Sequence record: OR228459.1
DNA: 64,000 nucleotides
Source of the DNA: Klebsiella phage fENko-Kae01
Strand: one strand, 5' to 3'
The position numbers and the translations under genes are program-made. Shown here in pieces: positions 37,474 to 64,000 of this stretch; within the stretch, counting starts at the first letter, position 1; the number at the start of each line of letters is the position of its first letter. The notes beneath the pieces were generated by a model. The model worked only from the letters and a program-made list of their open reading frames with translations, was not told the origin of the DNA and ran no database searches.

Positions 37474-37476
37474 TAT

Positions 37477-39676: not shown

Positions 39677-39687
39677 TTTATTTCTCC

Positions 39688-42059: not shown

Positions 42060-42069
42060 CCCCTTCTCC

Positions 42070-43236: not shown

Positions 43237-43312
43237 AATCCCCTCATAATTCTTGTAATTATATTATATTTAATTAAAAAAGGTCAGTACTGGTATTGTA
43301 CTGACCTTTTTA
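43237..43312 (-). promoter_or_regulatory. intra-array terminator + late-type promoter cassette
   Basis: Hairpin GGTCAGTAC-TGGTATT-GTACTGACC + T-run, then TTAATTAAATATAATATAATTACAAGAATTATGAGGGGATT-ATG (minus strand). Confidence 0.6.
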
Positions 43313-44434: not shown

Positions 44435-44456
44435 TATTATTCCTCGATTATTTTAA

Positions 44457-46325: not shown

Positions 46326-46412
46326 AATCCCCTCATAATTCTTGTAATTATATTATATTTAACCAAAAAAAGCCAGTACACCATTTTTAGTACTACACGA
46401 AATTTAAGTTTA
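46326..46412 (-). promoter_or_regulatory. intra-array promoter cassette (copy 2)
   Basis: Conserved ATAATTCTTGTAATTATATTATATTTAA sequence upstream of paralog 8. Confidence 0.55.
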
Positions 46413-47597: not shown

Positions 47598-47674
47598 ACA
47601 TTCTCCTTATTTGTACAATTATATTATATTTAATTAAAAATGACAGTACTTATGTAGTACTGTCATTTTTCTTA
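47598..47674 (-). promoter_or_regulatory. intra-array terminator + promoter cassette (copy 3)
   Basis: AATGACAGTAC-TTATGTA-GTACTGTCATT hairpin + T-run; conserved promoter block. Confidence 0.6.
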
Positions 47675-48478: not shown

Positions 48479-48488
48479 GATTGTCTCC

Positions 48489-49622: not shown

Positions 49623-49640
49623 ATATCCCCCATAATTCAT

Positions 49641-49696
49641 GTAATTATACTATATTTAATTAAAAAAGGCTAGTACGCACTTGTACTAGCCATCTC
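49641..49696 (-). promoter_or_regulatory. intra-array terminator + promoter cassette (copy 4)
   Basis: GGCTAGTAC-GCACTT-GTACTAGCC hairpin; conserved promoter block. Confidence 0.6.
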
Positions 49697-50842
49697 TCAA
49701 TTAATAGATTTAATATCAACTTCTGCACCCAATGACAATTTAGTAAAGGTAGTTGTATCTTGACTTAAGGAAGGAAAAGAAGAACCACTATACCAAATTG
49801 TATTTCTAGTTATTATCATAGTATTAGTTGAATTAGCACATATTCCAATTATATCATTAAGTACTAACTCATCTGGCAAATTAATAATTGTCTTATTTTG
49901 GGGCGTAACCTTATTACCTAAACCCAATTGTCCACTTGTATTATTTCCAGTACAATATAAATCATTATTCACACTAAAAAATGTACCATAACGTGTTAAT
50001 ATAGAATATGGATGATTGAAAAACTTATTAGCACCAACCATACTATACAAACCCGTAATACCAATTTGGGCTGTACTTCCATTACCCATACAATAATAAG
50101 TACCTAATCCCGCTCCATATATCCAACTTTGATTAATAGACATAACCGCCGATGGCATTAAACTCCATGAAATGTTAGAAGTTCTAGGAGCAGAAGCAAC
50201 TTGTACTTCATTCGGCGTAGGTGATGTTCCAAGCATCGATGGTGCATTACCAAAACCACAGATAACATCATATGCACTGAACCATTTTCGATAAGCCGTT
50301 ATGCCATTATAAAGCTGTACATCTTTAACCCTAGAAACCATTAAAGTAGGTACTGATAACATTCCATTTAAGGCAACCTTATTACTTAAACTATAAGTAC
50401 TATTCCTACCAACCATATATAAATCACCATATGTGCGATCAGTCGAATTCGGTATTAAATAAGCCATGTTGTTTAAAGTAGCTGTAATGTTATAAGCATC
50501 ACTAGGAATAGTAAAGGGAAGTTTGGTAAAACTATATACATTACTATTAAGCCCTAAACATGTGCGGTTGCCAGATATATAGTACTGACCATCATTTCCT
50601 TGAATGATCACACTCATATCAGTAGCACATACCACTTTTTTAATATTACCTGCAATCAATCTCCATTCAGATAATGGTGCAGAATCACCAGTACCCAATT
50701 GACCCTGACTATTATCCCCTAATGCAAATAAATTACCAATAGAATCTATATATAATGCAAAATAATTCAATCCACAGAATTGAACTATTTTTGCATCCGG
50801 TAATGTGTTCCCATAATCCAATATCCTAGCAAACGGTATCAT
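49697..50842 (-). CDS. MIPF-family fibre-like paralog 12
   Basis: MIPFARILDYGN; GDNSQGQLGTGDSAP. Confidence 0.85.
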   Translation of the reverse strand: MIPFARILDYGNTLPDAKIVQFCGLNYFALYIDSIGNLFALGDNSQGQLGTGDSAPLSEWRLIAGNIKKVVCATDMSVIIQGNDGQYYISGNRTCLGLNSNVYSFTKLPFTIPSDAYNITATLNNMAYLIPNSTDRTYGDLYMVGRNSTYSLSNKVALNGMLSVPTLMVSRVKDVQLYNGITAYRKWFSAYDVICGFGNAPSMLGTSPTPNEVQVASAPRTSNISWSLMPSAVMSINQSWIYGAGLGTYYCMGNGSTAQIGITGLYSMVGANKFFNHPYSILTRYGTFFSVNNDLYCTGNNTSGQLGLGNKVTPQNKTIINLPDELVLNDIIGICANSTNTMIITRNTIWYSGSSFPSLSQDTTTFTKLSLGAEVDIKSIN

Positions 50843-52728: not shown

Positions 52729-53064
52729 ACACGGCATGGAAGATGTGGTGAGTTATCATCCTGACTTCTGTCTTGTTTATGAAAATAGATTGAAACAGTA
52801 CTAACACGTTTATAACAACGTAACAGTACTGATATGAAGTGAAAAGTATTACCCACCAGCTTAAGCTGGTGGATGTGGTTAGAATAATAAGAAGGGGAAT
52901 CCCCAATCATACGATGAACTATATTCAATTCTACCAGTACTGCGAATAGTTACTCCACAAGAATGAGAAGACTGTTGTAGTACTGAACTTTTTATGACGA
53001 GAAAATTTGAATAGATTTTGGGTGTACTTATCCTGTACTCTGGACGGATTAAGGGCGTGTTTGA

Positions 53065-53150
53065 TTCTCATTCGCATATAAGAATGATAAACTTTCTCAA
53101 CATGAGAATGGTTCTCAGTTGCAAATAAGAATAGTTCTCAAATGAGAATA
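53065..53150. promoter_or_regulatory. four operator-like TTCTCA...(G/A)AGAAT inverted-repeat sites at ~25-bp spacing
   Basis: TTCTCAacaTGAGAA and TTCTCAaaTGAGAA palindromes plus two longer-spacer versions. Confidence 0.5.
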
Positions 53151-53314
53151 ATAATGATTATCGTTTTCAGTACTAGACTAATTTTTCCATTGGCTAGCCT
53201 ACCGCGACGGAATATAATATTCCGGCAGTATCACGAATCAGCTTGTTTTAAATCTGCCGTTATTATCTCAATATCTGGGTAGAATGTCAAGCTAATATTT
53301 TAAAAAATAAATGC

Positions 53315-53343
53315 TTGACACGTTGGCAGTACTTTGCTATTAT
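53315..53343 (+). promoter_or_regulatory. promoter TTGACA-N17-TATTAT driving non-coding IR-element transcript
   Basis: Perfect -35; no protein-size ORF before next promoter. Confidence 0.6.
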
Positions 53344-53370
53344 ATACACATAGCAAGAACAATGCTCAAG

Positions 53371-53458
53371 CCCACAGGGTGCGGAGGTGTATTCGTTAAA
53401 AGCTAAATGCGAATGATTATCATTTCGCTCATATGATACATTTCCGCACCCTCTAGGG
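53371..53458 (+). ncRNA. IR-element (CCCACAGGGTGCGG ... AATGATTATCATT ... CCGCACCCTCTAGGG), putative structured sRNA
   Basis: Homologous copy in inverted orientation at 59647-59726; flanked by convergent promoters. Confidence 0.45.
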
Positions 53459-53485
53459 TCTCCGCTTTCTCGCGTCTATATAGTA

Positions 53486-53514
53486 ATTATACGGTAATGC
53501 GGTTTATGCGTCAA
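53486..53514 (-). promoter_or_regulatory. minus-strand promoter (AAAAGTACTTGACG-N17-TATAAT) converging on IR element
   Basis: Reverse complement of 53486-53526 gives consensus promoter. Confidence 0.55.
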
Positions 53515-53591
53515 GTACTTTTTTAAAGAAAATCGAAAATAATTTAGTACTATATGTATATAAGGAAGGAAAAAGAATTTTCAAAAAGTAC

Positions 53592-53620
53592 TTGCATTCT
53601 AATTTAACCTATTGCATAAT
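53592..53620 (+). promoter_or_regulatory. early promoter AAAAAGTACTTGCAT-N17-CATAAT
   Basis: First of ~22 early promoters sharing AAAAGTACTTG(A/C)(C/A)(A/T) upstream box. Confidence 0.6.
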
Positions 53621-53664
53621 AGCTACATCGAAACGAGATACACAAACACATTAAGGAAAACGAT

Positions 53665-53898
53665 ATGATTCGCATTGTTCGCATTAATTACTCTACCGGT
53701 GAAGCTGATAAAGTAGCGGTTATTGTATCAGAAAAGAATGATGATCATCTACACAATACGCTGATGCGTTTTGTTAGTGCGGTTGACCGTTGGGCTAGTA
53801 TTGAGTACTTAGAAACGTTTAAAGTCCCTGCCGTCCAGCTTAACGGGCATGATATTAAAGCAATTTGGAATGCTGACGAAATGATCGCGAACATGTAA
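53665..53898 (+). CDS. hypothetical early protein
   Basis: 77 aa, TTAAGGAAAACGATATG leader. Confidence 0.55.
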   Translation: MIRIVRINYSTGEADKVAVIVSEKNDDHLHNTLMRFVSAVDRWASIEYLETFKVPAVQLNGHDIKAIWNADEMIANM

Positions 53899-53924
53899 TT
53901 ATTTCAAGTACTATCAAAATTTAC

Positions 53925-53952
53925 TTGACTTACTTTGATAGTACTTTATAAT
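53925..53952 (+). promoter_or_regulatory. early promoter, class B UTR (ACTTACATACAAACGAAGTACTATTAAGGAAA)
   Basis: TTGACT-N16-TATAAT. Confidence 0.6.
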
Positions 53953-53989
53953 ACTTACATACAAACGAAGTACTATTAAGGAAAGCATT

Positions 53990-54121
53990 ATGATCACTAT
54001 CGAGAAAATCCGTTTAGCAGTAGAAGAACTGATCGCGGCTGGCTGGATTGTCGCAGAAAGTGAAGAAGAAATTAACATTGTAGTAAATGGTATGTATTCA
54101 GTTATGACAAACGTGGAGTAA
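53990..54121 (+). CDS. small hypothetical early protein (43 aa)
   Basis: ATG after conserved TTAAGGAAAGCATT leader; below ORF-track cutoff. Confidence 0.4.
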   Translation: MITIEKIRLAVEELIAAGWIVAESEEEINIVVNGMYSVMTNVE

Positions 54122-54138
54122 GTTAGTATTAAAAGTAC

Positions 54139-54167
54139 TTGCATTTACTTAGCGAGTACTTTATAAT
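54139..54167 (+). promoter_or_regulatory. early promoter, class B UTR
   Basis: TTGCAT-N17-TATAAT. Confidence 0.6.
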
Positions 54168-54203
54168 ACTTACATACAAACGAAACACTATTAAGGAAAT
54201 ATC

Positions 54204-54821
54204 ATGGAAAACATTATCGACGTTATCAAGTCTGTTTCTTATGCTGATCTGAATGAAGCACAAAAAGAAAAAGCTATTGAGATCATGCGAGAGTTAGAGA
54301 ATCAAGAAATGACTCCGTTTTGGTCTGTAGATATTACTGATCAATGGAAAGAAACTTTAGACACTGAATACGGCATTACTGATGCAGTGATTTATTGGTC
54401 TGGTTTTTGTTCACAAGGTGACGGTGCATCGATTAGTACTGAATACTATATTGATATTGAGAAGTTTTTACGTAAATGTAAAGCGTGGTCAAAATTCCGT
54501 GTACTGCACAAAATTATTGACCGTGAAGAAATTCATGCTAAGATTGATCGTAGCTCAAGCCGTTACAATCATGAAAACACTGTAAGCGGTAGCGTAGAGC
54601 TTGATTATAACATTGATTGGACGGCGAAGCAGGAAAGCGAAGCTGAACGCTTAGAAGAATTTTTGACCGAAACTATTCGCGAACTTTCTTGTAAGCTGTA
54701 TAAAGAACTTGATAATGAGAATGATTATCAAAACAGCGATGATGCCCTTTGGTCTACCATTGAAGCAAATGAATATGATTTTGCTGTAAACTCAAACGGC
54801 GACGTTTTGCGTATCGCCTAA
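54204..54821 (+). CDS. acidic early protein
   Basis: 205 aa, very D/E-rich. Confidence 0.6.
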   Translation: MENIIDVIKSVSYADLNEAQKEKAIEIMRELENQEMTPFWSVDITDQWKETLDTEYGITDAVIYWSGFCSQGDGASISTEYYIDIEKFLRKCKAWSKFRVLHKIIDREEIHAKIDRSSSRYNHENTVSGSVELDYNIDWTAKQESEAERLEEFLTETIRELSCKLYKELDNENDYQNSDDALWSTIEANEYDFAVNSNGDVLRIA

Positions 54822-54837
54822 AGTACTGACATACTGT

Positions 54838-54869
54838 AAAACGCTCTATAACGCATTGTAGGGCGTTTT
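54838..54869 (+). terminator. rho-independent terminator
   Basis: AAAACGC...GGGCGTTTT. Confidence 0.5.
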
Positions 54870-54926
54870 AAGGAATAGCAGTATCATTTATCATCTTAAT
54901 TAATTAAACGGCGTAGACGGCGATTT

Positions 54927-55097
54927 ATGAGCAAACAAGATATATTGAAAGGGGATGTTTTATACTGGTTAGATCCTGATGATGGGATCTGTTCTGGATG
55001 GGTAACAGTATTAGACGTTAATACTACAGTACTGGTAAAAGGTGCAACGGCAGAATTTGAAGTGCTACCCGAAGAACTTTATTCGCATGAAGTTTAA
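54927..55097 (+). CDS. small hypothetical protein (56 aa)
   Basis: ATG ORF between terminator and next promoter; weak RBS. Confidence 0.4.
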   Translation: MSKQDILKGDVLYWLDPDDGICSGWVTVLDVNTTVLVKGATAEFEVLPEELYSHEV

Positions 55098-55104
55098 AAA
55101 GTAC

Positions 55105-55162
55105 TTGCAAAGTAAATCTAAAAGCGTATAATGATTTGCATAGGGGGAAACATCTTCCCCCC
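55105..55162 (+). promoter_or_regulatory. early promoter + class A 5'UTR hairpin (GGGGGAA-ACATC-TTCCCCC)
   Basis: TTGCAA-N16-TATAAT; hairpin starts ~+10, followed by ACTATTAAGAGAAACGATT-ATG. Confidence 0.65.
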
Positions 55163-55181
55163 ACTATTAAGAGAAACGATT

Positions 55182-55622
55182 ATGACTATCTACTATCTGA
55201 CTTATAAAACCGCCGACAATGTAACTGATGCTAATGTGACCGCAAACACGGTACAGGAAGCAATGGAAGTACTGAAAGCGGAACTACCTGATATTCAGAT
55301 CGTTTGTGTAGTTGATACCGAAACGAATCTTAAAACTATTATTGACCACTATGATTATTTCCGTGGGCGTAAGTTACAGGACTGGTATCATATCGAAATA
55401 GAAACACGTGAACTACCAGAAGAACAACAGCACTTTGAGCAGGGTACTAGCATTTGGGTTACTACCGATAAACGCATATATTTCTGTTCACGCATACACG
55501 TTAACAAGCGTGTTAAAATTGGGGCAGATTCATATAGTGGACTGTTTACAAATAGTAACCTACTAAATGACAAGTACATAAAAGTTTATGAGCGTTTTGG
55601 AACTGATATTTACGCTTCATAA
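55182..55622 (+). CDS. hypothetical early protein
   Basis: Start set to ATG after class A leader (MTIYYLTYK...). Confidence 0.6.
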   Translation: MTIYYLTYKTADNVTDANVTANTVQEAMEVLKAELPDIQIVCVVDTETNLKTIIDHYDYFRGRKLQDWYHIEIETRELPEEQQHFEQGTSIWVTTDKRIYFCSRIHVNKRVKIGADSYSGLFTNSNLLNDKYIKVYERFGTDIYAS

Positions 55623-55630
55623 TATCACAA

Positions 55631-55660
55631 AGGGGAAGCAATTGCTTCCCTGTTTATTTG
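55631..55660. terminator. bidirectional terminator
   Basis: AGGGGAAGC-AATT-GCTTCCCCT + TTTATTT. Confidence 0.7.
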
Positions 55661-55703
55661 TACAGTACTATAATCTATAGATACAATACCGCACCCCGTG
55701 GGC

Positions 55704-55754
55704 TAATGTGTTTTCATGGGTATTATTATGCCAGTACTACAAACATTTGTCAAT
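55704..55754 (-). ncRNA. leaderless mini-ORF (MKTH*) small transcription unit with own promoter
   Basis: Minus strand: TTGACA-N18-ATAATA, TSS at ATG, ATGAAAACACATTAG, then CCCACGGGGTGCGG arm and the bidirectional terminator. Confidence 0.45.
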
Positions 55755-55931
55755 CATTATTTTCAATTAATTTAAACGCACTGTAACACTGTATAAGGCG
55801 TTTTGTTATTAAGGTAAGCAAACGTATTGAGTACTATCTAAAAGGCCGTTGTGGGCTTGCTGGTGGCGTTGTGTTGTAGTATTGAAATATAAGGAAAATA
55901 TAAAAAAGGCTGTCAATGATTAAAAAAGTAC

Positions 55932-55960
55932 TTGACGGATTGATTTAGTACTGTCATAAT
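55932..55960 (+). promoter_or_regulatory. early promoter without downstream ORF (possible sRNA promoter)
   Basis: AAAAAAGTACTTGACG-N17-CATAAT; next promoter 140 bp downstream. Confidence 0.5.
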
Positions 55961-56072
55961 GTATCACATAGAGCGGCGGGATGGATAAACATTCCTAAGT
56001 AGACAGCCAGTAAGTCATACGAAAGACTGGTGCCGAACTGAAAGAAAGATTGAAAAGAGTTTTAAAAAGTAC

Positions 56073-56101
56073 TTGACAAGCTGGTGGGAAATTGAGATAA
56101 T
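56073..56101 (+). promoter_or_regulatory. early promoter
   Basis: AAAAAGTACTTGACA-N17-GATAAT. Confidence 0.6.
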
Positions 56102-56151
56102 GACCCCGTAGACAGCAAACAACCTAATTAAACTTTAAGAGGAAATATACA

Positions 56152-56739
56152 ATGACTACTACTACTGAAAATGCACGTGTTACCCTGAAATCTGCACTGG
56201 AAGCTGGCGACGTTAAAACCCTTGCTGTTATCCTTGCGAAAGTTGGTCATGATAAAGACGGCGTATCTAAATTGGGCTTGACTTTCTCACTGGCGGTTAA
56301 GGAAGCGAAGGAAGTACTTAAAGAGCAAGCCAAAGCAGCAGAAGAAGCTGCACGTCAGGCAGCAGAACGCCGCGAAGCTAAAAAGGCTGCACGTCAAGCC
56401 GAAGAAGAAAAGCGTCAGGCTGAGATCAAGGCAGAAAAAGAAAATATGCTCAAGTTCCTCATGGATACGGTTAACGGTATGGGCTTAGACCTTGAGGCGG
56501 CAGAAGCGGCAGCAGAAGCGGCAATTGTTAAAAAGTACGGCGATGTTAACAAAGTACCTAAGTATACTTTTAACCGTGTAGCGGTGATTGTAGACGGTAA
56601 AGAATACAACATGCCAACTTCTGGGAACATGGTAGAAGTACTTAAAAATGCACTTGAAGCAAGCGGTAAATCGCGTAAAGAGTTTATCATCGAACACGCG
56701 AAAGACAAGGCAGAAGCGGAAGCGGCATTCGCTGAATAA
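56152..56739 (+). CDS. Ala/Glu/Lys-rich coiled-coil early protein
   Basis: 195 aa; AKAAEEAARQAAERREAKKAARQAEEEKRQAEIKAEKE. Confidence 0.6.
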   Translation: MTTTTENARVTLKSALEAGDVKTLAVILAKVGHDKDGVSKLGLTFSLAVKEAKEVLKEQAKAAEEAARQAAERREAKKAARQAEEEKRQAEIKAEKENMLKFLMDTVNGMGLDLEAAEAAAEAAIVKKYGDVNKVPKYTFNRVAVIVDGKEYNMPTSGNMVEVLKNALEASGKSRKEFIIEHAKDKAEAEAAFAE

Positions 56740-56757
56740 TAACAGTACTAAACTATA

Positions 56758-56784
56758 GGCGGCCTAAGTGGTCGCCTTTTTTTA
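56758..56784 (+). terminator. rho-independent terminator
   Basis: GGCGGCC-TAAGT-GGTCGCC + T7. Confidence 0.65.
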
Positions 56785-56797
56785 ATTGGGGGATTAT

Positions 56798-57058
56798 ATG
56801 GCTGTAGGATTCGCGAAAGACGGGGCAGAACAAGACGAGATTTTAGCGGTCATAAACGCCGCTGTAAGCCACGCAAGGAATCAGATAGGGGATAGTACTA
56901 TTACAAGTAGAACGCACTGCCTAGACTGTTCTAGGACTATTCCTGAGCGTAGACGGGAAGTAGTAAAGGGTGTTAAGTACTGCGTAGAGTGTCAGGCTGA
57001 TCATGATAGTATATTTAAAAGAGATCCGCGTAATTGTTGGCACAGATCTATGAGATAG
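56798..57058 (+). CDS. TraR/DksA-family C4 zinc-finger protein
   Basis: CLDCSRTIPERRREVVKGVKYCVECQ matches TraR/DksA C4 finger; start set at ATG after GGGGGA. Confidence 0.7.
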   Translation: MAVGFAKDGAEQDEILAVINAAVSHARNQIGDSTITSRTHCLDCSRTIPERRREVVKGVKYCVECQADHDSIFKRDPRNCWHRSMR

Positions 57059-57061
57059 TAC

Positions 57062-57118
57062 TTGACATACTTTCTGATTAAAGTATAATGATTTGCATAG
57101 AGGGAAACATCTTCCTTC
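57062..57118 (+). promoter_or_regulatory. early promoter + class A UTR hairpin (variant GAGGGAAACATCTTCCTTC)
   Basis: TTGACA-N16-TATAAT. Confidence 0.65.
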
Positions 57119-57139
57119 ACTAATTAAGGAAATAGAATC

Positions 57140-57412
57140 ATGCGTACACCAATGACCCGCGAAGAAATACACACAGTACTGACAACTAACATTCAGGACT
57201 GGAAGAAATACGCAGATATTAACGAAGCTCAAGACTTGAACAATGAGCTAGATGGTGAAGATCTGGACGTAATTTGTTCCCCTGAGTTTTATGATGATAT
57301 TCATTCCGATGATGATGTTTGGAATGTACTGGAAAAGCATTTCCTCGATACTGATTTAAGTATCTACTCGCGTGATACTTTTATTTTAATTCACAACATT
57401 TATAACAAATAA
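57140..57412 (+). CDS. acidic early protein
   Basis: 90 aa, D/E-rich. Confidence 0.55.
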   Translation: MRTPMTREEIHTVLTTNIQDWKKYADINEAQDLNNELDGEDLDVICSPEFYDDIHSDDDVWNVLEKHFLDTDLSIYSRDTFILIHNIYNK

Positions 57413-57415
57413 TTG

Positions 57416-57472
57416 TTGACTTACTTATATAGTACTGTATAATGGTTTGCATAGGGGGAAACATCTTCCCCC
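57416..57472 (+). promoter_or_regulatory. early promoter + class A UTR hairpin
   Basis: TTGACT-N16-TATAAT; GGGGGAAACATCTTCCCCC. Confidence 0.65.
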
Positions 57473-57491
57473 ATCAATTAAGGAAAAGAAA

Positions 57492-57701
57492 ATGACTCGA
57501 TACACTGTAGAAGTACGTACTACTAAAAACATTGCTACTGATGTGATTCGTTATTATAAGATGGTTTGTGGTGTTGCTCGCCGTATTAGTAAAGCGGATT
57601 ATGACAAGCTGGATCGCGAAGCTGATGGTATGGATTGTTTTTATACAGTAAACACAAAAACGCATACAAAGCAATTTAAAACATTGTCTTATTACATGTA
57701 A
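57492..57701 (+). CDS. hypothetical early protein
   Basis: ATG after AAGGAAAAGAAA leader. Confidence 0.55.
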   Translation: MTRYTVEVRTTKNIATDVIRYYKMVCGVARRISKADYDKLDREADGMDCFYTVNTKTHTKQFKTLSYYM

Positions 57702-57719
57702 AAAGTTTTACTCCAGTAC

Positions 57720-57748
57720 TTGACAATAGATGCGAGTACTGGCATAAT
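57720..57748 (+). promoter_or_regulatory. early promoter, class B UTR
   Basis: TTGACA-N17-CATAAT. Confidence 0.6.
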
Positions 57749-57784
57749 AACTTTATTGAAACGAAATACTATTAAGGAAATATC

Positions 57785-57832
57785 ATGGCTAATCTCATTG
57801 TTCGATTGTATGAAGATTGTTTCTACTTTTAG
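57785..57832 (+). CDS. 15-codon mini-ORF (MANLIVRLYEDCFYF) at consensus early start site
   Basis: Occupies position of a normal early gene start after ATTAAGGAAATATC; shares MAN start with gene at 58259. Confidence 0.3.
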   Translation: MANLIVRLYEDCFYF

Positions 57833-57862
57833 TATTGTGGGAAACCTATATCCGTTAAAGAG

Positions 57863-58174
57863 ATGATCGCATCGGGCTATATGTTATCTAAGCATGATCA
57901 CACTGGATTCATGGCTGAAATGGTTGCGGCTAGTTATAAGTTTGGTGAAGAATGGGAAGCACAATATTTTCCGGCTGTCAATGCAATGATTAAGCGGTTG
58001 GCAGAACACACTGAGTTTATGGAATTTTGGACTGTTTTAAAAATGGTTGACGTGAATCAGAATGGGGAAACGTGTCAGCCATACGCACATTTTGACGCTG
58101 GGGAAGATATTAGCACAATTTGGAAATGGTTGGAAGATAAATTTACAACAATTAAAATTGCAGATTACTTGTAA
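57863..58174 (+). CDS. hypothetical early protein
   Basis: 103 aa, AAAGAG RBS. Confidence 0.5.
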   Translation: MIASGYMLSKHDHTGFMAEMVAASYKFGEEWEAQYFPAVNAMIKRLAEHTEFMEFWTVLKMVDVNQNGETCQPYAHFDAGEDISTIWKWLEDKFTTIKIADYL

Positions 58175-58180
58175 AAGTAC

Positions 58181-58239
58181 TTGCATTACTATCTGAAAAG
58201 CGTATAATGGTTTGCATAGGGGGAAACATCTTCCCCCAC
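58181..58239 (+). promoter_or_regulatory. early promoter + class A UTR hairpin
   Basis: TTGCAT-N16-TATAAT; GGGGGAAACATCTTCCCCC. Confidence 0.65.
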
Positions 58240-58258
58240 TAACTAAGAGAAGAATATC

Positions 58259-58639
58259 ATGGCTAATCAAATCACTCCAGCACAGACCTTCAATAAATTC
58301 AGTACTGAAATCGTATTGAAAGAGTATGTGCCAGATTATGGTTGGACTGATGCATGTGTATGCACTGATGTAGCAGATGCAAAGCAACGCATTAAAGATT
58401 ATCGTGCGGAGGGTTTACAGGTTAAAACTGCCCGTCGCCGTGTACTTAACAAAGATGCTTTCTTATGTCAAGCTCTTTTAAACTTCTGCCGTGACTACTA
58501 TCGCCGTACTGGTGGATTATGGCCTAATGAGGTTGAAGTACTGAAATCTAACGGTAAAGTAAAATTTACCTTGACTTTAAAAGAAATTGAGGAAGTACTT
58601 GGTGATGATTGTTTTTTAGTAACTTCACAGCCAGCATAA
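58259..58639 (+). CDS. hypothetical early protein
   Basis: 126 aa. Confidence 0.6.
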   Translation: MANQITPAQTFNKFSTEIVLKEYVPDYGWTDACVCTDVADAKQRIKDYRAEGLQVKTARRRVLNKDAFLCQALLNFCRDYYRRTGGLWPNEVEVLKSNGKVKFTLTLKEIEEVLGDDCFLVTSQPA

Positions 58640-58647
58640 AAAAGTAC

Positions 58648-58681
58648 TTGACACATAACGGGGATATGATACAATATCCCC
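58648..58681 (+). promoter_or_regulatory. early promoter with -10 (TACAAT) in loop of GGGGATAT/ATATCCCC hairpin
   Basis: TTGACA-N16-TACAAT; 8-bp perfect stem. Confidence 0.55.
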
Positions 58682-58708
58682 ATATTGAAAAGTAATGGAA
58701 GTACTGAA

Positions 58709-58900
58709 ATGAATTATCAAAAGGTTAGCAAGCGAGTAGTTGAACTCTCTAAGAAAGCACGTAAAGAGTATACCTTAGAACGTTCAATTAACAACTATCA
58801 TTTAAAGCAAGGTGATAAGTTTATTGTTATTGACGAACCTTTGGAAATCGTGTATATTGTAGTTAATGCGATGATTCGTGATAAAACGAGGATTAAGTAA
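58709..58900 (+). CDS. hypothetical early protein
   Basis: Start set to ATG (MNYQKVSK...); ORF-track start is TTG. Confidence 0.5.
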   Translation: MNYQKVSKRVVELSKKARKEYTLERSINNYHLKQGDKFIVIDEPLEIVYIVVNAMIRDKTRIK

Positions 58901-59155
58901 ATGCGTACATTAGACCAACTTATTGACCCTAATACGTCAGCACGTCGATCAATGGTTACTATCGGCGGTAATGGTAAACAACACTGGAGTGGTTACATTT
59001 GCTTTATTGTTGGTGGAAAAATGTATGAGCGGGTAGTATATCACAAAGAGATTAATTATATACTATTCCGTAAAGAAGTCATAGCAGTCGATCCTACCGC
59101 CCTAAAACCGATTGCAGGGGCATGGAACAAAGAATCGCTGTACCTTACAGCTTAA
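58901..59155 (+). CDS. hypothetical protein
   Basis: TAAATG junction, 84 aa. Confidence 0.5.
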   Translation: MRTLDQLIDPNTSARRSMVTIGGNGKQHWSGYICFIVGGKMYERVVYHKEINYILFRKEVIAVDPTALKPIAGAWNKESLYLTA

Positions 59156-59204
59156 CCAATAAAAGGCCGCTACGTGCGGCCTATCGCGTTCTAGAGGGTA
59201 TATT

Positions 59205-59393
59205 ATGAATACTGTACAAGTACTAGATGAGATTGAAAAAATTGTTGACAGTACTAACAAACGTGATATACTGTTATCAAGAAATAAGGCTAACCAGTAC
59301 GAAAAGAATTGCGTACAATCTGCACTAGGGGGTAACTTTGAATCGCTACACTCAACCATACTTCAAGGGAATAACAACCGCCCACCAGCGTAA
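59205..59393 (+). CDS. hypothetical protein
   Basis: 62 aa, GAGGGTATATTATG RBS. Confidence 0.4.
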   Translation: MNTVQVLDEIEKIVDSTNKRDILLSRNKANQYEKNCVQSALGGNFESLHSTILQGNNNRPPA

Positions 59394-59595
59394 AAAGAAA
59401 CTACACATAGTACAGAAACGAAAGCGTAAAGTACTTAAACTTAAACCAACATATAGTTGGGGATTGTCGTGGGATGAAATCAATCACGGACTATCATGGA
59501 ATCAATTATATGTTATTGGCTCAAGTGTTGGACGCTTTCATTTTAGTACTATATCACGACAAGAAACACGTGTAAACCCATATAAAAGTACTTGA
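59338..59595 (+). CDS. very basic small protein, +1-frame overlap with upstream ORF
   Basis: 85 aa, K/R-rich; 56-nt overlap around CTAGGGGGTAAC. Confidence 0.3.
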   Translation: MNRYTQPYFKGITTAHQRKKKLHIVQKRKRKVLKLKPTYSWGLSWDEINHGLSWNQLYVIGSSVGRFHFSTISRQETRVNPYKST

Positions 59596-59633
59596 CATAT
59601 ATCCGGCTTAGTGAGATAATACTTACAAGCCGG
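59592..59633 (+). promoter_or_regulatory. early promoter with -10 (GATAAT) in loop of CCGGCTT/AAGCCGG hairpin
   Basis: TTGACA-N17-GATAAT; no ORF downstream. Confidence 0.55.
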
Positions 59634-59646
59634 AGAAACGGCGTGA

Positions 59647-59726
59647 CCCATAGGGTGCGAAGAAGTAATCAGTACTTGAGAATGATAATCATTTACAACA
59701 CTAGACAGATTTATGCACCCGATGGG
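59647..59726 (-). ncRNA. IR-element (minus orientation): CCCATCGGGTGCA ... AATGATTATCATT ... CGCACCCTATGGG
   Basis: Homolog of 53371-53458; downstream of leaderless mini-ORF on minus strand. Confidence 0.45.
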
Positions 59727-59776
59727 TTAGATTGTTTTCATGCATATATAATATCAAAGTACTGTTATAGTGTCAA
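59727..59776 (-). ncRNA. leaderless mini-ORF (MKTI*) unit with own promoter
   Basis: Minus strand TTGACA-N17-TATTAT, TSS at ATG, ATGAAAACAATCTAA. Confidence 0.45.
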
Positions 59777-59810
59777 GCATTTTTATTTGATAATTATTTT
59801 AAAAAAAGTC

Positions 59811-59838
59811 TTGCATTACTTTCTGAATAACGTATAAT
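59811..59838 (+). promoter_or_regulatory. early promoter, class B UTR
   Basis: TTGCAT-N16-TATAAT. Confidence 0.6.
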
Positions 59839-59869
59839 ACTTACATCAACCACTGAGAGGAAAGAAACA

Positions 59870-60241
59870 ATGTCTATTAAGCGTATTGTATTTGGTCGCG
59901 GTGCAAGTGAAGAAGTAGTACCTGTTGAACTGATCGCGATGTTAAATGAAATGATTCGCCGTGGTGATATTAATTTTAGTCCTGATGTAATGCCTTATGC
60001 GATTTCGTATGAGGTGCGTAAAAGTCCTAAGTACTGGAAGATTGACCGTGTAGAATTGGACAAAGAAACCGGAGAGATTCGCGAGTTTGGGCGTAGTTCT
60101 GTTGGTGCTGTAGATTTTGAAGGGAACGTGTTTAAATCTGCCAGCTATAAAGCCGTTGCTAAGGGTATCCGTGGAAACATCTTTGTTAACAATGGTTTTA
60201 GTGCAATTACTGGTGACGGATATATTCGTTATTTAAATTAA
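59870..60241 (+). CDS. hypothetical early protein
   Basis: 123 aa. Confidence 0.6.
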   Translation: MSIKRIVFGRGASEEVVPVELIAMLNEMIRRGDINFSPDVMPYAISYEVRKSPKYWKIDRVELDKETGEIREFGRSSVGAVDFEGNVFKSASYKAVAKGIRGNIFVNNGFSAITGDGYIRYLN

Positions 60242-60247
60242 AAAGTA

Positions 60248-60308
60248 CTTGCAAAGTAATCTGATTAGCGTATAATGTTTTACATAGAGAGGGGAAATAG
60301 TTTCCCCT
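60248..60308 (+). promoter_or_regulatory. early promoter + class A UTR hairpin (covariant GAGGGGAAA-TAG-TTTCCCCTC)
   Basis: TTGCAA-N16-TATAAT; compensatory base changes preserve stem. Confidence 0.65.
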
Positions 60309-60328
60309 CCATATTAAGGAAAAGTATC

Positions 60329-60565
60329 ATGGCACAGAAAATCACTCGCGATAACGTAGAATTTTACATTGATATCCTGAATACTAAACTTGAAAAGATG
60401 GGTGCTCCACTACGTTACAAAATGATCCCTGTTGCTGGTGGTTATGAGTTGCAAAAGTACAAGGGTGATATTCAGGTTGATTATTGTGTATCTGGTCAAA
60501 AACTCCGTGAAGTTTATGAGATTGTACGTTTTGCAGCTAACATGATTTCGGATAACGTGAAGTAA
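60329..60565 (+). CDS. hypothetical early protein
   Basis: Start set to ATG after leader (MAQKITRDNV...). Confidence 0.55.
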   Translation: MAQKITRDNVEFYIDILNTKLEKMGAPLRYKMIPVAGGYELQKYKGDIQVDYCVSGQKLREVYEIVRFAANMISDNVK

Positions 60566-60584
60566 TTATTATCAAAAAGTACTA

Positions 60585-60613
60585 TTGACAGAAACATGAT
60601 AGTACTTTATAAT
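60585..60613 (+). promoter_or_regulatory. early promoter, class B UTR
   Basis: TTGACA-N17-TATAAT. Confidence 0.6.
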
Positions 60614-60645
60614 ACTTACATCAATTAAGCAAAGAGGAAAACAAA

Positions 60646-60951
60646 ATGCAAATGTCTAACCTGTATGTAGCTCACATCACTATGCGTCATGGTGAATATG
60701 AAACACTGGTTAAACGTCTGATTATTGCTAAGAGTTTAGCAGAGGCAGAATTATACGCCTATGAAGAAGGGATGGCAACATTTGACGGTAGCGAATTAGA
60801 AGATAAATCCAGCTATCAAGAAGCGGATCAACCTCATACGTGGTATTTCTCAGGCGGGGATTGGTGCGTTACTCTTAATGCAGTTACATGGATTGAGGAT
60901 CGCGAAACAGCTAAAGTAATTGCTAAATCTGATTTACTGTCTTATCTGTAA
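60646..60951 (+). CDS. hypothetical early protein
   Basis: 101 aa. Confidence 0.55.
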   Translation: MQMSNLYVAHITMRHGEYETLVKRLIIAKSLAEAELYAYEEGMATFDGSELEDKSSYQEADQPHTWYFSGGDWCVTLNAVTWIEDRETAKVIAKSDLLSYL

Positions 60952-60957
60952 AAGTAC

Positions 60958-60990
60958 TTGACAACCTTTCGGGGGTAGGATATACTATCC
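60958..60990 (+). promoter_or_regulatory. early promoter with -10 (TATACT) inside GGATA/TATCC hairpin
   Basis: TTGACA-N17-TATACT. Confidence 0.55.
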
Positions 60991-61018
60991 CCATCAATTA
61001 AGCAAAGAGAGAAACAAA

Positions 61019-61429
61019 ATGTTTAAAATTACTAGCGTAGAAAAAAGCGGCGATTCCATGATTGTAAGTGCTTTCTGGAATGATGCTTGTCAAGTATCTA
61101 TTAGCTTTAATCAAATGGGCGTAGTACAATCCTGTACTTTCGCAGAGGATACCAAAGAGCGAGCACAATTAGAAGATCATGCACGTTCGGTAATTAAATT
61201 CAATATTCCTATTGAAATGGAACCTAATATCATTTATACTGATGATCAGGTCGAGCAAATGAAACGTTGGTATGAATCTTTGATTAAAGCGGAAAAGGTC
61301 ATTGCAGAAATGGATCAATGTATCGTTGAAGCTGATTGGTTATCTGATATGTTCGGGCAAACATCCGGTAGCATTATTGATGCCCTGTTTAATGTTCGTG
61401 CGGCGTTAGATCCTCGCATCAATCAATAA
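61019..61429 (+). CDS. hypothetical early protein
   Basis: 136 aa. Confidence 0.6.
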   Translation: MFKITSVEKSGDSMIVSAFWNDACQVSISFNQMGVVQSCTFAEDTKERAQLEDHARSVIKFNIPIEMEPNIIYTDDQVEQMKRWYESLIKAEKVIAEMDQCIVEADWLSDMFGQTSGSIIDALFNVRAALDPRINQ

Positions 61430-61432
61430 AGA

Positions 61433-61472
61433 AAAAAGGGGTTGACTTCGGTCGCCCCTTTTGTTATTATAT
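61433..61472 (+). promoter_or_regulatory. UUCG-hairpin terminator/promoter element (GGGGTTGAC-TTCG-GTCGCCCC, TATTAT)
   Basis: Only copy in the early region; stem has compensatory changes. Confidence 0.6.
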
Positions 61473-61548
61473 AGTCATTGGCAGATAAGCTACTAACCCA
61501 TAGGGTGCAATAGTCTGTCTGTAGTATTTTAGTACTGAAAAATAGTTC

Positions 61549-61576
61549 TTGCTTTTATGTGCTGGTGGTGTATAAT
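61549..61576 (+). promoter_or_regulatory. promoter with weak -35 (TTGCTT) and TATAAT
   Basis: UTR ACTTGTATTGAAAC... shared with promoter at 63471. Confidence 0.45.
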
Positions 61577-61606
61577 ACTTGTATTGAAACAAACGAGGGT
61601 TCAATT

Positions 61607-61768
61607 ATGGAACATGATTTTGATTCATCGGATTTTGAGTTGGCTAGTGATTATGCATGGCATCTTATGCAAAAAGAAGGTAAATCCGAAACTGATGCAT
61701 TAATGCAGGCGGCTAACCAATATAATATTAATTACGTATCATTACAAGGATATTGGGATCAAGCATAA
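61607..61768 (+). CDS. small hypothetical protein
   Basis: Start set to ATG after GAGGGTTCAATT. Confidence 0.5.
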   Translation: MEHDFDSSDFELASDYAWHLMQKEGKSETDALMQAANQYNINYVSLQGYWDQA

Positions 61769-61775
61769 AAAGTAC

Positions 61776-61832
61776 TTGCATTACATATTCAGTACTGTAT
61801 AATGGTTTGCATAGGGAAAAACAACTTCCCCC
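61776..61832 (+). promoter_or_regulatory. early promoter + class A UTR hairpin (variant GGGAAAAACAACTTCCC)
   Basis: TTGCAT-N16-TATAAT. Confidence 0.65.
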
Positions 61833-61852
61833 ACTAATTAAGGAAATGAATT

Positions 61853-62317
61853 ATGAATAGCATCCAGTTCGTAGAAGCCATTGAAAAAGAATTCCTGTCA
61901 GTATTTCCTAACGGTTTCTTTATTGCCCGACCTTTACCGTTGGGCGGTGATGTAGGGATCACTATGGGACTGACTCGCGAACAGGCCGATTGTCCTCATA
62001 ATATCCGTGATAATGATCGTATGCGTATGACCTTCGCGATCCACGGTATGAAGTTTGGGGATAGTGAAGATTATAACGACAAGTTAATTATGGAACCGTA
62101 CTATTCAGCGATTAGCACGATTCCACGCAAGCCATACTACGCTATGGGACACGATAAGATCAAGACACGCAAAACCACTAACACGCCGGAAAAATTGATT
62201 GTAACGCTTTCTAAGTACATTAAAACCGCAGGGCAGCAAGTAAAAGAGCTAGCAGAAGTAAACGAGATTTATCAGCAGGAACAGATTAAACCTCAGTACT
62301 TAGAAATTAACGTGTAA
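61853..62317 (+). CDS. hypothetical early protein
   Basis: 154 aa. Confidence 0.6.
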   Translation: MNSIQFVEAIEKEFLSVFPNGFFIARPLPLGGDVGITMGLTREQADCPHNIRDNDRMRMTFAIHGMKFGDSEDYNDKLIMEPYYSAISTIPRKPYYAMGHDKIKTRKTTNTPEKLIVTLSKYIKTAGQQVKELAEVNEIYQQEQIKPQYLEINV

Positions 62318-62333
62318 TTATTATCAAAAGTAC

Positions 62334-62362
62334 TTTACAAATACAGTAGAGTACTTTATAAT
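62334..62362 (+). promoter_or_regulatory. early promoter, class B UTR
   Basis: TTTACA-N17-TATAAT. Confidence 0.55.
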
Positions 62363-62394
62363 ACTTACATCAATTAAGCAAAGAGGGTTACAAA

Positions 62395-62619
62395 ATGGCG
62401 GCTAAAACTTTTGAACAGTTAAAATGGGTTGCTGGTCAAATCACTGATGATCTGATGTATTCCCGAATGAATGAAGCAGTACTAAAAACCGTTTTCAATC
62501 GCCGGACTAAATCTACTGAAATGGCTACCTTATGCGGCCTTGTATGTGCTAGTGCAATGGAACGTAAAATTAATACAGAAGTAATTGAGCGTTATTTACG
62601 CAACGTACATACTGAGTAA
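62395..62619 (+). CDS. hypothetical early protein
   Basis: 74 aa. Confidence 0.55.
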   Translation: MAAKTFEQLKWVAGQITDDLMYSRMNEAVLKTVFNRRTKSTEMATLCGLVCASAMERKINTEVIERYLRNVHTE

Positions 62620-62635
62620 TTATTATCAAAAGTAC

Positions 62636-62664
62636 TTTACAAATATAGTAGAGTACTTTATAAT
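62636..62664 (+). promoter_or_regulatory. early promoter, class B UTR
   Basis: TTTACA-N17-TATAAT; whole 62320-62395 block duplicated at 62620-62697. Confidence 0.55.
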
Positions 62665-62696
62665 ACTTACATCAATTAAGCAACGGGATTTATACT

Positions 62697-62927
62697 ATGG
62701 ATAATCGTGAAATCATTGCTCAAGTACTGACACGTATTTTAATGTCAACTCGACTTTCACAGGTACGCAACATCACAGCCGCACATGAAAATACATGGCG
62801 TGAAGCCTTAAATGGTAGTAATGCAAGTCAGCTAGCGGCGGATAATAAGCTGAAAGAAGTTATCAAGTCTGCTATGGCAGAATTGAATGATGATGCAGTA
62901 AATTATGTTTTAAATTCTTTCAAATAG
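62697..62927 (+). CDS. hypothetical early protein
   Basis: 76 aa. Confidence 0.55.
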   Translation: MDNREIIAQVLTRILMSTRLSQVRNITAAHENTWREALNGSNASQLAADNKLKEVIKSAMAELNDDAVNYVLNSFK

Positions 62928-62930
62928 TAA

Positions 62931-62987
62931 TTGCATTACTTCTGAAATAACGTATAATGGTTTGCATAGGGGGAAACAACTTCCCCC
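62931..62987 (+). promoter_or_regulatory. early promoter + class A UTR hairpin
   Basis: TTGCAT-N16-TATAAT; GGGGGAAACAACTTCCCCC. Confidence 0.65.
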
Positions 62988-63007
62988 ACTAATTAAGGAA
63001 ATATAAT

Positions 63008-63316
63008 ATGATTGCTAACGTTCAAGCCAACTTTGAAAACCAATTCATCAATGAAATATTGCGACTGGATGATGGGGTCGCACGTATTAACTACGGTTTT
63101 AACTCCGGTGGTTATGAAAGTAACGTGTACTTTTATACTGCTGACGGTGGTACACTGGCAATCGATACGGTAATTGTTGAAATACAAAAAGTAAACTTCA
63201 ATGATGAAAATGATCCACAGTGGTATATCATCGGCTATGACGTGAACTATGAAGATCAAGATCTTTATGACTCACATACAGGCCAGCAAATCATTCCCGC
63301 TTATGGGGATGAATAA
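63008..63316 (+). CDS. hypothetical early protein
   Basis: 102 aa. Confidence 0.55.
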   Translation: MIANVQANFENQFINEILRLDDGVARINYGFNSGGYESNVYFYTADGGTLAIDTVIVEIQKVNFNDENDPQWYIIGYDVNYEDQDLYDSHTGQQIIPAYGDE

Positions 63317-63323
63317 TAACACA

Positions 63324-63353
63324 AAGGGGAGCTAACACTCCCCTGTTTATTTG
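63324..63353. terminator. bidirectional terminator
   Basis: GGGGAG-CTAACA-CTCCCC + TGTTTATTT. Confidence 0.65.
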
Positions 63354-63395
63354 TACAGTACTAAATCATATAGATACAATTCCGCACCCTGTGGG

Positions 63396-63446
63396 TTAGA
63401 TTGTTTTCATGACAATAATTATACTTAAAATCGGGTGACGTGTCAA
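63396..63446 (-). ncRNA. leaderless mini-ORF (MKTI*) unit with own promoter
   Basis: Minus strand TTGACA-N17-TATAAT, ATGAAAACAATCTAA at TSS, CCCACAGGGTGCGG arm, ends at bidirectional terminator. Confidence 0.45.
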
Positions 63447-63470
63447 GCATTTATTTTATTAAAAACGTAC

Positions 63471-63498
63471 TTGCAATTTTTCAGTACTGTAGTATAAT
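63471..63498 (+). promoter_or_regulatory. early promoter
   Basis: TTGCAA-N16-TATAAT; back-to-back with minus promoter at 63441. Confidence 0.6.
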
Positions 63499-63531
63499 AC
63501 TTGTATTGAAACGAGATAAGGGAAACACAAA

Positions 63532-64000
63532 ATGATTACACAAATCTATCACGGCAGCACCCGTTTTGATACTGCTGGTGGATATAAAGGCGGCAAGCCT
63601 AACAGCTTTCAATATGGTGTAGGTCTGTATTGTACTAATGCTTACTTGTGGGCTGAGAAGTACGGTCGAAGTGTTTATGTATTAGATGTGGAACTCAAAC
63701 CAGAACACCACGCCGACAATGTAGAAATTACAATTGAAAACTTGCAATATTGGGTTAACTGCTATTGCTCGCAAAAAGTAGCAAAGATCTTTAAAAAGGA
63801 ATTCAGCCAGCGTAAAACTATGACTGCAAATCGCTTTGAATTGTGGTTGTACTGGAATGTAAGACGCTTTAAACCAATCGCCGTACAATTAGCTGCTTTC
63901 TTTGCTGCACAAGGTGTAACCCATAATAGCGAGGTTGGCAATTATGGTGGTAAACTCATTCGTATCTATGACTTTGATATTATCAAAGGTTACACAAAGG
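63532..64000 (+). CDS. YHGST-motif protein, partial (paralog of 3638-4330), runs off window
   Basis: MITQIYHGSTRFDTAGGYKGG...GVGLYCTNAYLWAEKYG; no stop before 64000. Confidence 0.6.
   Translation, partial: MITQIYHGSTRFDTAGGYKGGKPNSFQYGVGLYCTNAYLWAEKYGRSVYVLDVELKPEHHADNVEITIENLQYWVNCYCSQKVAKIFKKEFSQRKTMTANRFELWLYWNVRRFKPIAVQLAAFFAAQGVTHNSEVGNYGGKLIRIYDFDIIKGYTK

Follow-up and report, generated by a model that had tools for sequence, protein, structure and literature searches.

Short transcribed elements of phage early regions have been described in several forms. The bar minigenes of phage lambda are very short open reading frames (ORFs; an AUG, a few codons and a stop) that are preceded by a Shine-Dalgarno sequence and whose pth-dependent toxicity has been demonstrated. 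Lambda oop and P22 sar are short (about 70-90 nt) non-coding RNAs, transcribed from their own promoter opposite an early gene, which end at a terminator by the convergent gene and overlap the coding or ribosome-binding region of their target. The nut (boxA/boxB) and HK022 put elements join, in a promoter-proximal nascent RNA, a small purine-loop hairpin and a conserved linear sequence, and the pR-pL regions of coliphages 186 and P2 have strong convergent promoters within about 200 bp, with palindromic operator-like sequence between them. The PeSL of T4-type phages are cassettes in which a terminator is followed by a promoter in gene direction, without a conserved transcribed module (PMC2839356, PMC4122927). 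Here we compare with these systems a family of promoter-linked repeats in a stretch of 64,000 nt from Klebsiella phage fENko-Kae01 (OR228459.1; hereafter the window), where a preliminary description had flagged three minus-strand sites (A, B and C) as transcription units of leaderless mini-ORFs, antisense to the 3′ ends of early genes.

The reading that we favour, by a slight preponderance, is that the three sites are members of a family of repeated cassettes for non-coding early transcription, lying in a region homologous to a terminal repeat. Our best guess for its role is that the family supplies non-coding RNAs, made early, as markers of the boundaries between gene modules. Sequence comparison established a conserved promoter-linked module, RNA-type covariation, restriction to the early region, two arrangements and positions at module boundaries. 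The box family is apparently previously undescribed; no mention of the element occurs in papers on CBB, fEgEco12, phAPEC6 and Muenster or in a 2026 jumbo-phage review, and these papers on the phage group give generic promoter predictions only.

Seven box units in the early region

Near-consensus sigma-70 promoters, with 11-12 of 12 matches each, are present at all three flagged sites (Table 1), and after each of them the mini-ORF pattern CATGAAAACA…TA(A/G)CCCAYNGGGTGC was found as described. The composite pattern CATGAAAACANNNTARCCCAYNGGGTGC matched three times in the window and not once in 100 shuffles. All three sites were thus real, but the set was incomplete. A search profile built from 48 copies of the unit (nhmmer) reported exactly seven members in the window, all at 53.3-63.4 kb with the first 53 kb empty, adding P1, P1′, B′ and P2 to the original three. 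Three of the seven (P1, B′ and P2) are on the plus strand, and the other four (P1′, A, B and C) are on the minus strand and oppose the genes. The 12-nt box CCCAYNGGGTGC, which gives the family its name here, occurs six times in the window, three of them on the plus strand, where 0.32 occurrences are expected. The 64 kb have six strong minus-strand promoters, four of which are those of box units. Ordinary promoters in the early region stand directly ahead of a Shine-Dalgarno sequence and a gene; none of the seven units does. In plus-strand single units such as P2 a second promoter intervenes before the gene (61607-61768 in the case of P2), and a scan of the plus strand between the B′ promoter and the gene at 59870-60241 found no other promoter-like site.

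The family was also found in phages of Klebsiella, Escherichia, Cronobacter, Pectobacterium, Yersinia, Serratia and Erwinia related to the one studied here. BLAST searches with units C and P1 found homologues in 36 and 63 records, respectively, spanning eight host genera, and all of these were jumbo-phage records save one of 52 kb. In one complete Klebsiella phage genome of 347.5 kb, eight exact boxes and ten profile matches all lie at 30.3-48.9 kb, and the terminal repeat of Klebsiella phage Muenster maps to 30,260-50,087 of the same genome. The copies in phage Munch extend from 1,003 to 20,321, with none onward to 30,000. Minus-strand single units with a terminator-like hairpin recur in phages of Klebsiella, Escherichia, Yersinia, Serratia and Pectobacterium, and the single units of Muenster adjoin independently annotated terminators at 4951-4978 and 11927-11953.

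Judged by its sequence, the window is DNA of a Rak2-like jumbo phage type, nearest to Munch, 7t3 and SE_PL. Its 55-64 kb stretch is 96-98% identical to the Salmonella jumbo phages SE_PL, 7t3, PHA46 and Munch (~350 kb) and has a more distant match to Rak2-like phages of Escherichia, Klebsiella and Erwinia; the Munch record has its base 1 at the equivalent of window position 52370. In Muenster the homologous region is a terminal repeat of 20,030 bp (a PhageTerm prediction) that is dense in small plus-strand genes. Direct terminal repeats of ~20 kb have been reported in five phages of the Rak2-like group (PMC13070987), and the terminal repeat of CBB measures 22.5 kb (PMC5259590). Because the window region is homologous to the Muenster repeat, we infer that the box family sits in the terminal repeat of the window phage as well.

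Leader, box and the two arrangements

The anatomy of the unit was derived from 75 copies, taken from the window, Muenster, Munch and ~17 loci of jumbo viral contigs; a scan of viral contigs with a 14-base pattern gave mostly chance matches, and loci were kept from contigs >300 kb only. For 72 of the 75 boxes there is a promoter with at least 9 of 12 matches, in a fixed orientation and at a fixed upstream distance (the box lies 20-29 nt from the -10 hexamer). The parts follow one another in the order promoter, leader of ~20 nt and invariant box CCCAYNGGGTGC(GGAG), that is, CCCAYNGGGUGC(GGAG). The leader spans from a conserved CAT start to the box and comes in two kinds, either a small hairpin or an A-rich unstructured sequence. 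Hairpin leaders have stems of 4-5 bp (AGCA/TGCT, GCCG/CGGC, TGGC/GCCA, CCAC/GTGG, GGAG/CTCC, GACG/CGTC and others) and purine-rich loops (GCGAAA, GAGAAA, AGAUAA, AGAACAA). The A-rich variants are AUGAAAACAAUCUAA, AUAGACAAAAACUAA, AUAGAAACAAGCUAA and AUCAAGAAAACAGCUAA, and the three flagged copies have an A-rich leader without a stem.

Over 62 distinct leaders the mean minimum free energy was -3.2 kcal/mol, compared with -1.00 +/- 0.16 in shuffled sets. When 15 leaders were picked by their loop alone, 95% of the stem cells were paired versus 45% in shuffled sequences (0/500), and two-sided changes were seen at 4/4 pairs, with slid-partner controls at <=50%. As the leader stems show compensatory two-sided changes, the leader hairpin points to selection acting on a single strand in folded form, for which the 5′ end of an RNA is the simplest candidate. 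Covariation is absent from the box; its 3′ neighbour changes by transitions only, all of them compatible with pairing to GGGUG, which is a weak hint of structure. A box-internal hairpin (GGGUG/YRYYY) is a weak candidate; it is 86% paired, but its changes are all one-sided and no better than those of shuffles. Possible resemblances to CRISPR repeats, REP elements, the CsrA motif, RyhB, M1 RNA and tmRNA were set aside as too short to be meaningful, and in a search of Rfam only tRNAs reached the gathering score, with no family overlapping the units even at E-values up to 10.

In A, B and C the A of the ATG lies 6-7 nt past the -10 hexamer, so that a transcription start on the ATG is plausible. 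Alignment of the three copies, which had been described as sharing a conserved arm with GCGG after the mini-ORF, bore this out for two of them: A and C match from the promoter through the terminator and have the arm, but B diverges from them after GGGTGC and lacks it. The claim that two copies end in bidirectional terminators held for A and C, the terminator-like hairpins of which (Table 1) also close the plus-strand genes 55182-55622 and 63008-63316. Their predicted RNAs are ~93 nt long, and that of unit A folds with a z-score of -3.4. Unit B has a hairpin without a U-tract.

The second arrangement is the head-to-head pair. Many copies consist of two units with convergent promoters, whose facing boxes form the base of a palindrome; the palindrome measures 69 bp from box to box in 10 of 19 pairs and 80 or 87-92 bp in the window lineage. 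The window has two such pairs, P1/P1′ and B′/B, and the core of each, read on either strand, is predicted to form a long hairpin (z-scores of -4.9 and -6.0, respectively). Across phages, pairing past the boxes is maintained inconsistently. The centre of B′/B (59678-59696, GAGAATGATAATCATTTAC) agrees with the E. coli Fur-box consensus GATAATGATAATCATTATC at 16 of 19 positions, its homologue in Munch at 17 of 19, and the palindromic centre of P1/P1′ (AATGATTATCATT at 53412-53424) is also Fur-box-like. Five window sites have <=3 mismatches to GATAATGATAATCATTATC, all at 53.1-59.7 kb, versus 0.11 expected. Centres of the P1 type are kept in Klebsiella, E. coli and Yersinia phages, and the 69-bp pairs of other phages have no Fur-like centre. 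Directly upstream of B′/B, at 59338-59595 on the plus strand, there is an ORF of 85 aa with a basic stretch, HQRKKKLHIVQKRKRKVLKLK, in which 9 of 15 residues are K or R; a PHROGs search with this ORF gave no match.

Proposed boundary marking and its alternatives

Along the window the order is P1/P1′, five genes, a terminator with A (facing left), about nine genes, B′/B, four genes, the terminator/promoter of P2, five genes, and a terminator with C (facing left). Because the units in this way delimit modules of plus-strand genes, they may serve as marks of the module boundaries. Host RNA polymerase would fire from the cassette promoters upon entry of the DNA, at the immediate-early stage, and leader and box would be made as a short, stable and abundant box-RNA or as a box-carrying 5′ leader. 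Units at module ends would fire head-on against the direction of the genes and could seal the boundaries by promoter occupancy, by polymerase collision and by pairing with read-through transcripts, while the box would be read by some factor. There is a precedent in the distant relative PA5oct, for which two abundant non-coding RNAs (ncRNAs) encoded in the terminal repeat were detected by RNA-seq (PMC7318152). The ncRNA001 of PA5oct, a direct terminal repeat ncRNA, has no box, and the PA5oct ncRNAs are unrelated in sequence to the box family. A transcription-primed replication origin was also considered for the family and discarded, as single units that end at a terminator are at odds with it.

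Several points weigh against boundary marking by box RNAs. The start sites, RNA ends and abundance of these RNAs are predictions throughout, and the flagged copies A, B and C are without the leader hairpin, the sole strong RNA-level evidence. Sealing of boundaries leaves the invariance of the box unexplained, as it does the plus-strand units P1, B′ and P2. Two-sided covariation is absent from the box, which could therefore be recognised as DNA instead of RNA, and the long hairpins of the pairs could be a mere consequence of two boxes face to face, given that pairing past the boxes is not maintained. A bolder version of the RNA reading, tentative and on the whole unlikely, would make hairpin and box a novel class of early RNA signal shared by the Rak2-like jumbo phages of Enterobacterales, transcribed in mass from both strands of the terminal repeat during the opening minutes of infection and acting through a partner, either to reprogram polymerase or as a decoy for a conserved host factor, with the pairs as switches, possibly Fur-responsive, that gate successive early modules.

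The preliminary description had itself offered two readings of A, B and C. As leaderless toxic minigenes they would be translated from a 5′-terminal AUG into MKTI or MKTH, and peptidyl-tRNA drop-off would poison host translation, as in lambda bar. All three do have an ATG at the predicted +1, followed by three codons and a stop (Table 1), and a copy in an E. coli phage (L005, position 6285) reads ATG AAA ACA AGC TAA; still, comparison across the family left this reading unsupported, and we consider it extremely improbable. The mini-ORF is not the conserved feature, since CATG is found in about 8 of the 62 distinct leaders and the ATG is absent both at the matching Klebsiella phage positions (Muenster 5020- and 11998-, which start CAUAAGCC... 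and CAUAAAGC...) and in four of the seven window members, the plus-strand ones starting CAUAGC..., CAUUGG... and ACAAGCC.... Several of the frames continue past the box into longer ORFs, the in-frame stop is a URR triplet that precedes the box family-wide, and the parts that are conserved are the box and, elsewhere, the hairpin. Thus, the box family differs from lambda bar in having no conserved AUG, and A, B and C in having no Shine-Dalgarno sequence. Translation of the three AUG copies is possible, but the ATG is a trait of one lineage-specific leader variant, and ATG AAA ACA NNN stop looks like a by-product of an A-rich leader variant and the conserved URR triplet. The other reading was that these are antisense small RNAs acting on the 3′ ends of genes, which in the manner of lambda oop would pair with the convergent early mRNAs and bring about RNase III cleavage or decay. 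Part of this reading stood: both A and C are short units of the minus strand with their own promoters, they oppose the genes 55182-55622 and 63008-63316 and share terminators with them, the arrangement of a single unit with a terminator is kept in other genera, and because the minus-strand terminator tails are weak (CUUUGUG), read-through into the genes is possible. What speaks against it is that the predicted RNAs of A and C end 2-3 nt short of the stop codons of the genes, so that the overlap is limited to the terminator and 3′ untranslated region, unlike the coding or ribosome-binding overlap of oop and sar, and that the conserved leader and box are intergenic, outside this overlap. Nor does the reading fit P1′, the plus-strand members or B, which forms one side of a palindrome between convergent promoters. 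Unlike oop and sar, the box units are a multi-copy family with a common 5′ module that is found also on the gene strand. Cis-antisense action as the explanation of the units is, in our view, distinctly unlikely.

The remaining alternatives concern the family as a whole. Cassettes of the T4 PeSL type could act at the DNA level, being spread or homogenised for module shuffling without a specific RNA function, with the box perhaps an operator. The two systems have in common repeated near-consensus sigma-70 early promoter cassettes in plastic regions of small ORFans in T4-related myoviruses, and the window is of this sort, with a repeated promoter cassette in the hyperplastic ORFan region of a distant T4 relative; P2 (61433-61470) and many of its relatives even have a terminator hairpin fused to the promoter in one composite hairpin, as in PeSLs (PMC4122927). 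The box is moreover invariant and not covarying, the box-to-box length is fixed in about half of the pairs (10/19), and cassettes have been replaced, inserted or deleted in the region relative to Munch (57792-58173 and 60648-60950). In this comparison, which covers one genome pair, the indel borders fall at ordinary promoter repeats of ~80 bp rather than at box units. The compensatory changes in the leader stem argue for a folded single strand, and the box, whose distance from the -10 hexamer varies (20-29 nt), keeps one orientation and never leaves the transcribed side. Box units further differ from PeSLs in being defined by their transcribed part (a covarying 5′ hairpin and an invariant box of 12-16 nt), in opposing the genes in four of seven cases, A, B and C doing so without an upstream stem-loop, and in forming convergent head-to-head pairs, so we think a purely DNA-level role quite improbable. 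Similarly improbable is a nut- or put-like element, in which the nascent hairpin and box would load a factor on polymerase and alter termination, the minus-strand units giving timed antisense read-through. Its logic of boxB and boxA would be matched by a hairpin with a covarying stem and a purine-rich loop followed by a conserved linear box, at a position fixed right after the start site, in an early region punctuated by terminators and with the very basic small ORF adjoining B′/B; a hairpin with a conserved loop and a variable stem was seen in the hairpin-class leaders, the three flagged copies being without the stem. However, the order of the parts and their sequences are unrelated to nut and put, the box is unlike the boxA consensus and has no Rfam match, and no arginine-rich N-like protein or N-terminal motif was found; the products of neighbouring ORFs were assigned by Pfam and PHROGs only to families of unknown function and to one DksA-like zinc-finger protein. 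A plus-strand unit is in each case followed by a module that simply runs to the next terminator, and with four of the seven units pointing against the genes, many box units face the wrong way or meet a terminator at once; convergent pairs make little sense for anti-termination. Lastly, an abundant box-RNA or the multi-copy DNA sites might titrate a conserved host factor, with the Fur-like centres titrating or responding to Fur. The number of copies and the strength of their promoters, the likely presence of the region twice in each genome, the conservation of the box across phages of at least seven host genera and the excess of Fur-box-like sites, including the centre of the B pair, are in line with such a decoy, but the analysis yielded no candidate partner, the box, single-stranded in single units, would be base-paired in the RNAs of the pairs, and the 69-bp pairs elsewhere lack a Fur-like centre, which makes it very unlikely.

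The favoured family of non-coding cassettes thus shares features with PeSL, oop-type RNAs and face-to-face switches and corresponds to the full definition of none. With the face-to-face switches the box pairs have in common two strong convergent promoters no more than about 200 bp apart and a palindromic, operator-like stretch in the middle; in contrast to the pR-pL regions of 186 and P2, no repressor is known for the box pairs, the units are repeated several times in a genome, and both transcripts share the 5′ module. Rak2-like jumbo phages are under development as therapeutics against Klebsiella, E. coli and Salmonella, and the family offers a conserved, testable handle on the regulation of their early genes, with 7-10 strong promoters per terminal repeat that carry a common short RNA module, about half of them directed against the genes. 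Should the box-RNA have a partner, this would be a new mechanism of host takeover or timing; if it has none, the family would still be a clear case of promoter cassettes shaping modular early regions. For the scanning of genomes it shows that a striking mini-ORF can be the by-product of a non-coding repeat.

Surroundings of the box units

The coordinates of the units and of other elements of the early region are given in Table 1. Intergenic promoter repeats of ~80 bp precede most of the small plus-strand genes of this region. Among the early genes, 56798-57058 (plus strand) encodes a DksA/TraR-like zinc-finger protein (phrog_54, E-value 5e-17), which is plausible as a modulator of host RNA polymerase. 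In the composite terminator/promoter hairpin of P2 (GGGGTTGACTTCGGTCGCCCCTTTTGTTATTAT, 61433-61470), which is PeSL-like, the -35 hexamer lies within the stem; such composite hairpins also occur at L001 8962, L002 18750 and many loci of related phages.

Table 1. Positions of the box units, their parts and other repeated elements in the window
Feature	Position	Strand	Details
P1, profile match	53350-53400	+	promoter 53315-53343; box 53371
P1′, profile match	53470-53434	-	promoter 53514-53486, TTGACG-17-TATAAT
Pair P1/P1′	53315..53514	.	convergent promoters; 88-bp core 53371-53458 (CCCACAGGGTGCGGAGG...TCCGCACCCTCTAGGG)
A, profile match	55725-55672	-	E-value 2.8e-11
A, promoter	55725..55753	-	TTGACA-17-CATAAT, 11/12
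A, A-rich leader (mini-ORF)	55717-55703	-	ATGAAAACACATTAG
A, box	from 55702	-	CCCACGGGGTGCGG; CCCACGGGGTGCGGTA = 55702-55687
A, predicted ~93-nt RNA	55625..55717	-	leader, box, hairpin, terminator stem 55650-55633
B′, profile match	59623-59669	+	E-value 5.4e-8; box 59647
B′, promoter	59592..59620	+	TTGACA-17-GATAAT, 11/12; left-hand partner of B; leader hairpin GCCGgagaaaCGGC
Pair B′/B, core	59647..59726	.	80-bp palindrome; box CCCATAGGGTGC (59647-59658, +) faces CCCATCGGGTGC (59726-59715, -)
B, profile match	59749-59698	-	
B, promoter	59748..59776	-	TTGACA-17-TATTAT, 11/12; right-hand member of head-to-head pair
B, A-rich leader (mini-ORF)	59741-59727	-	ATGAAAACAATCTAA
B, box	59726-59715	-	CCCATCGGGTGC
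P2, profile match	61477-61527	+	E-value 4.7e-9; promoter 61442-61470; box 61497
P2, whole unit	61433..61527	+	composite terminator/promoter hairpin GGGGTTGACTTCGGTCGCCCCTTTTGTTATTAT; leader hairpin TGGCagataaGCTA; box CCCATAGGGTGC (61497-61508)
C, profile match	63417-63367	-	E-value 6.5e-12
C, promoter	63418..63446	-	TTGACA-17-TATAAT, 12/12
C, A-rich leader (mini-ORF)	63410-63396	-	ATGAAAACAATCTAA
C, box	from 63395	-	CCCACAGGGTGCGG; CCCACAGGGTGCGGAA = 63395-63380
C, predicted ~93-nt RNA	63318..63410	-	leader, box, hairpin, terminator stem 63344-63325
Fur-box-like palindromes, early region	59678-59696, 53412-53424, 53144-53168, 54711-54729		
~80 bp promoter repeats, first five	55093-55176, 57047-57138, 57406-57495, 58173-58266, 60234-60331		intergenic
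~80 bp promoter repeats, last five	60553-60651, 61751-61859, 62308-62397, 62614-62688, 62916-63011		intergenic

In Muenster (L001 18-29) and its relative OU509535 (position 30288), a box without a promoter is found 17 bp from the left end given by PhageTerm. A link between the box and the genome terminus was rejected as a general explanation; boxes are missing both from the right boundary of the repeat (L003 ~4030) and from the left end of fEgEco12 as verified by restriction, and a homologue of the Muenster left end was not found in the window. Just to the left of the P1 pair, the minus strand at 53060-53170 has iteron- or operator-like palindromes of the GAGAA(N)nATTCTC / GATAATCATTAT type in an array, downstream of a strong minus-strand promoter (-35 at 53290) that is not one of the box family.

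At the start of the window there are five tRNA genes (Pro, Lys, Glu, Gly and Leu; 183-414, 3529-3604 and 6813-6895), and strong plus-strand sigma-70 promoters are numerous at 1.9-36 kb. Chi sites (GCTGGTGG) number 13 in the window versus 0.57 expected, 8 of the 13 being within 52853-63581; on the plus strand there are six at 52.4-64 kb versus one in the first 52 kb, and several are inside promoter spacers, for example at 61561. This excess may be related to RecBCD attack on linear ends or to repeat-mediated recombination. The palindrome AGTACT is present in 222 copies (for example at 52635, 52671, 52824, 52935 and 63482), ~10x a rough estimate from base composition. The sequence CAGTACTG occurs 21 times, with 0.78 expected, and it turns up again in promoter spacers (AGTACTGGCATAAT), on the 3′ side of the box and just 5′ of -35 hexamers (AAAAAGTACTTGAC).

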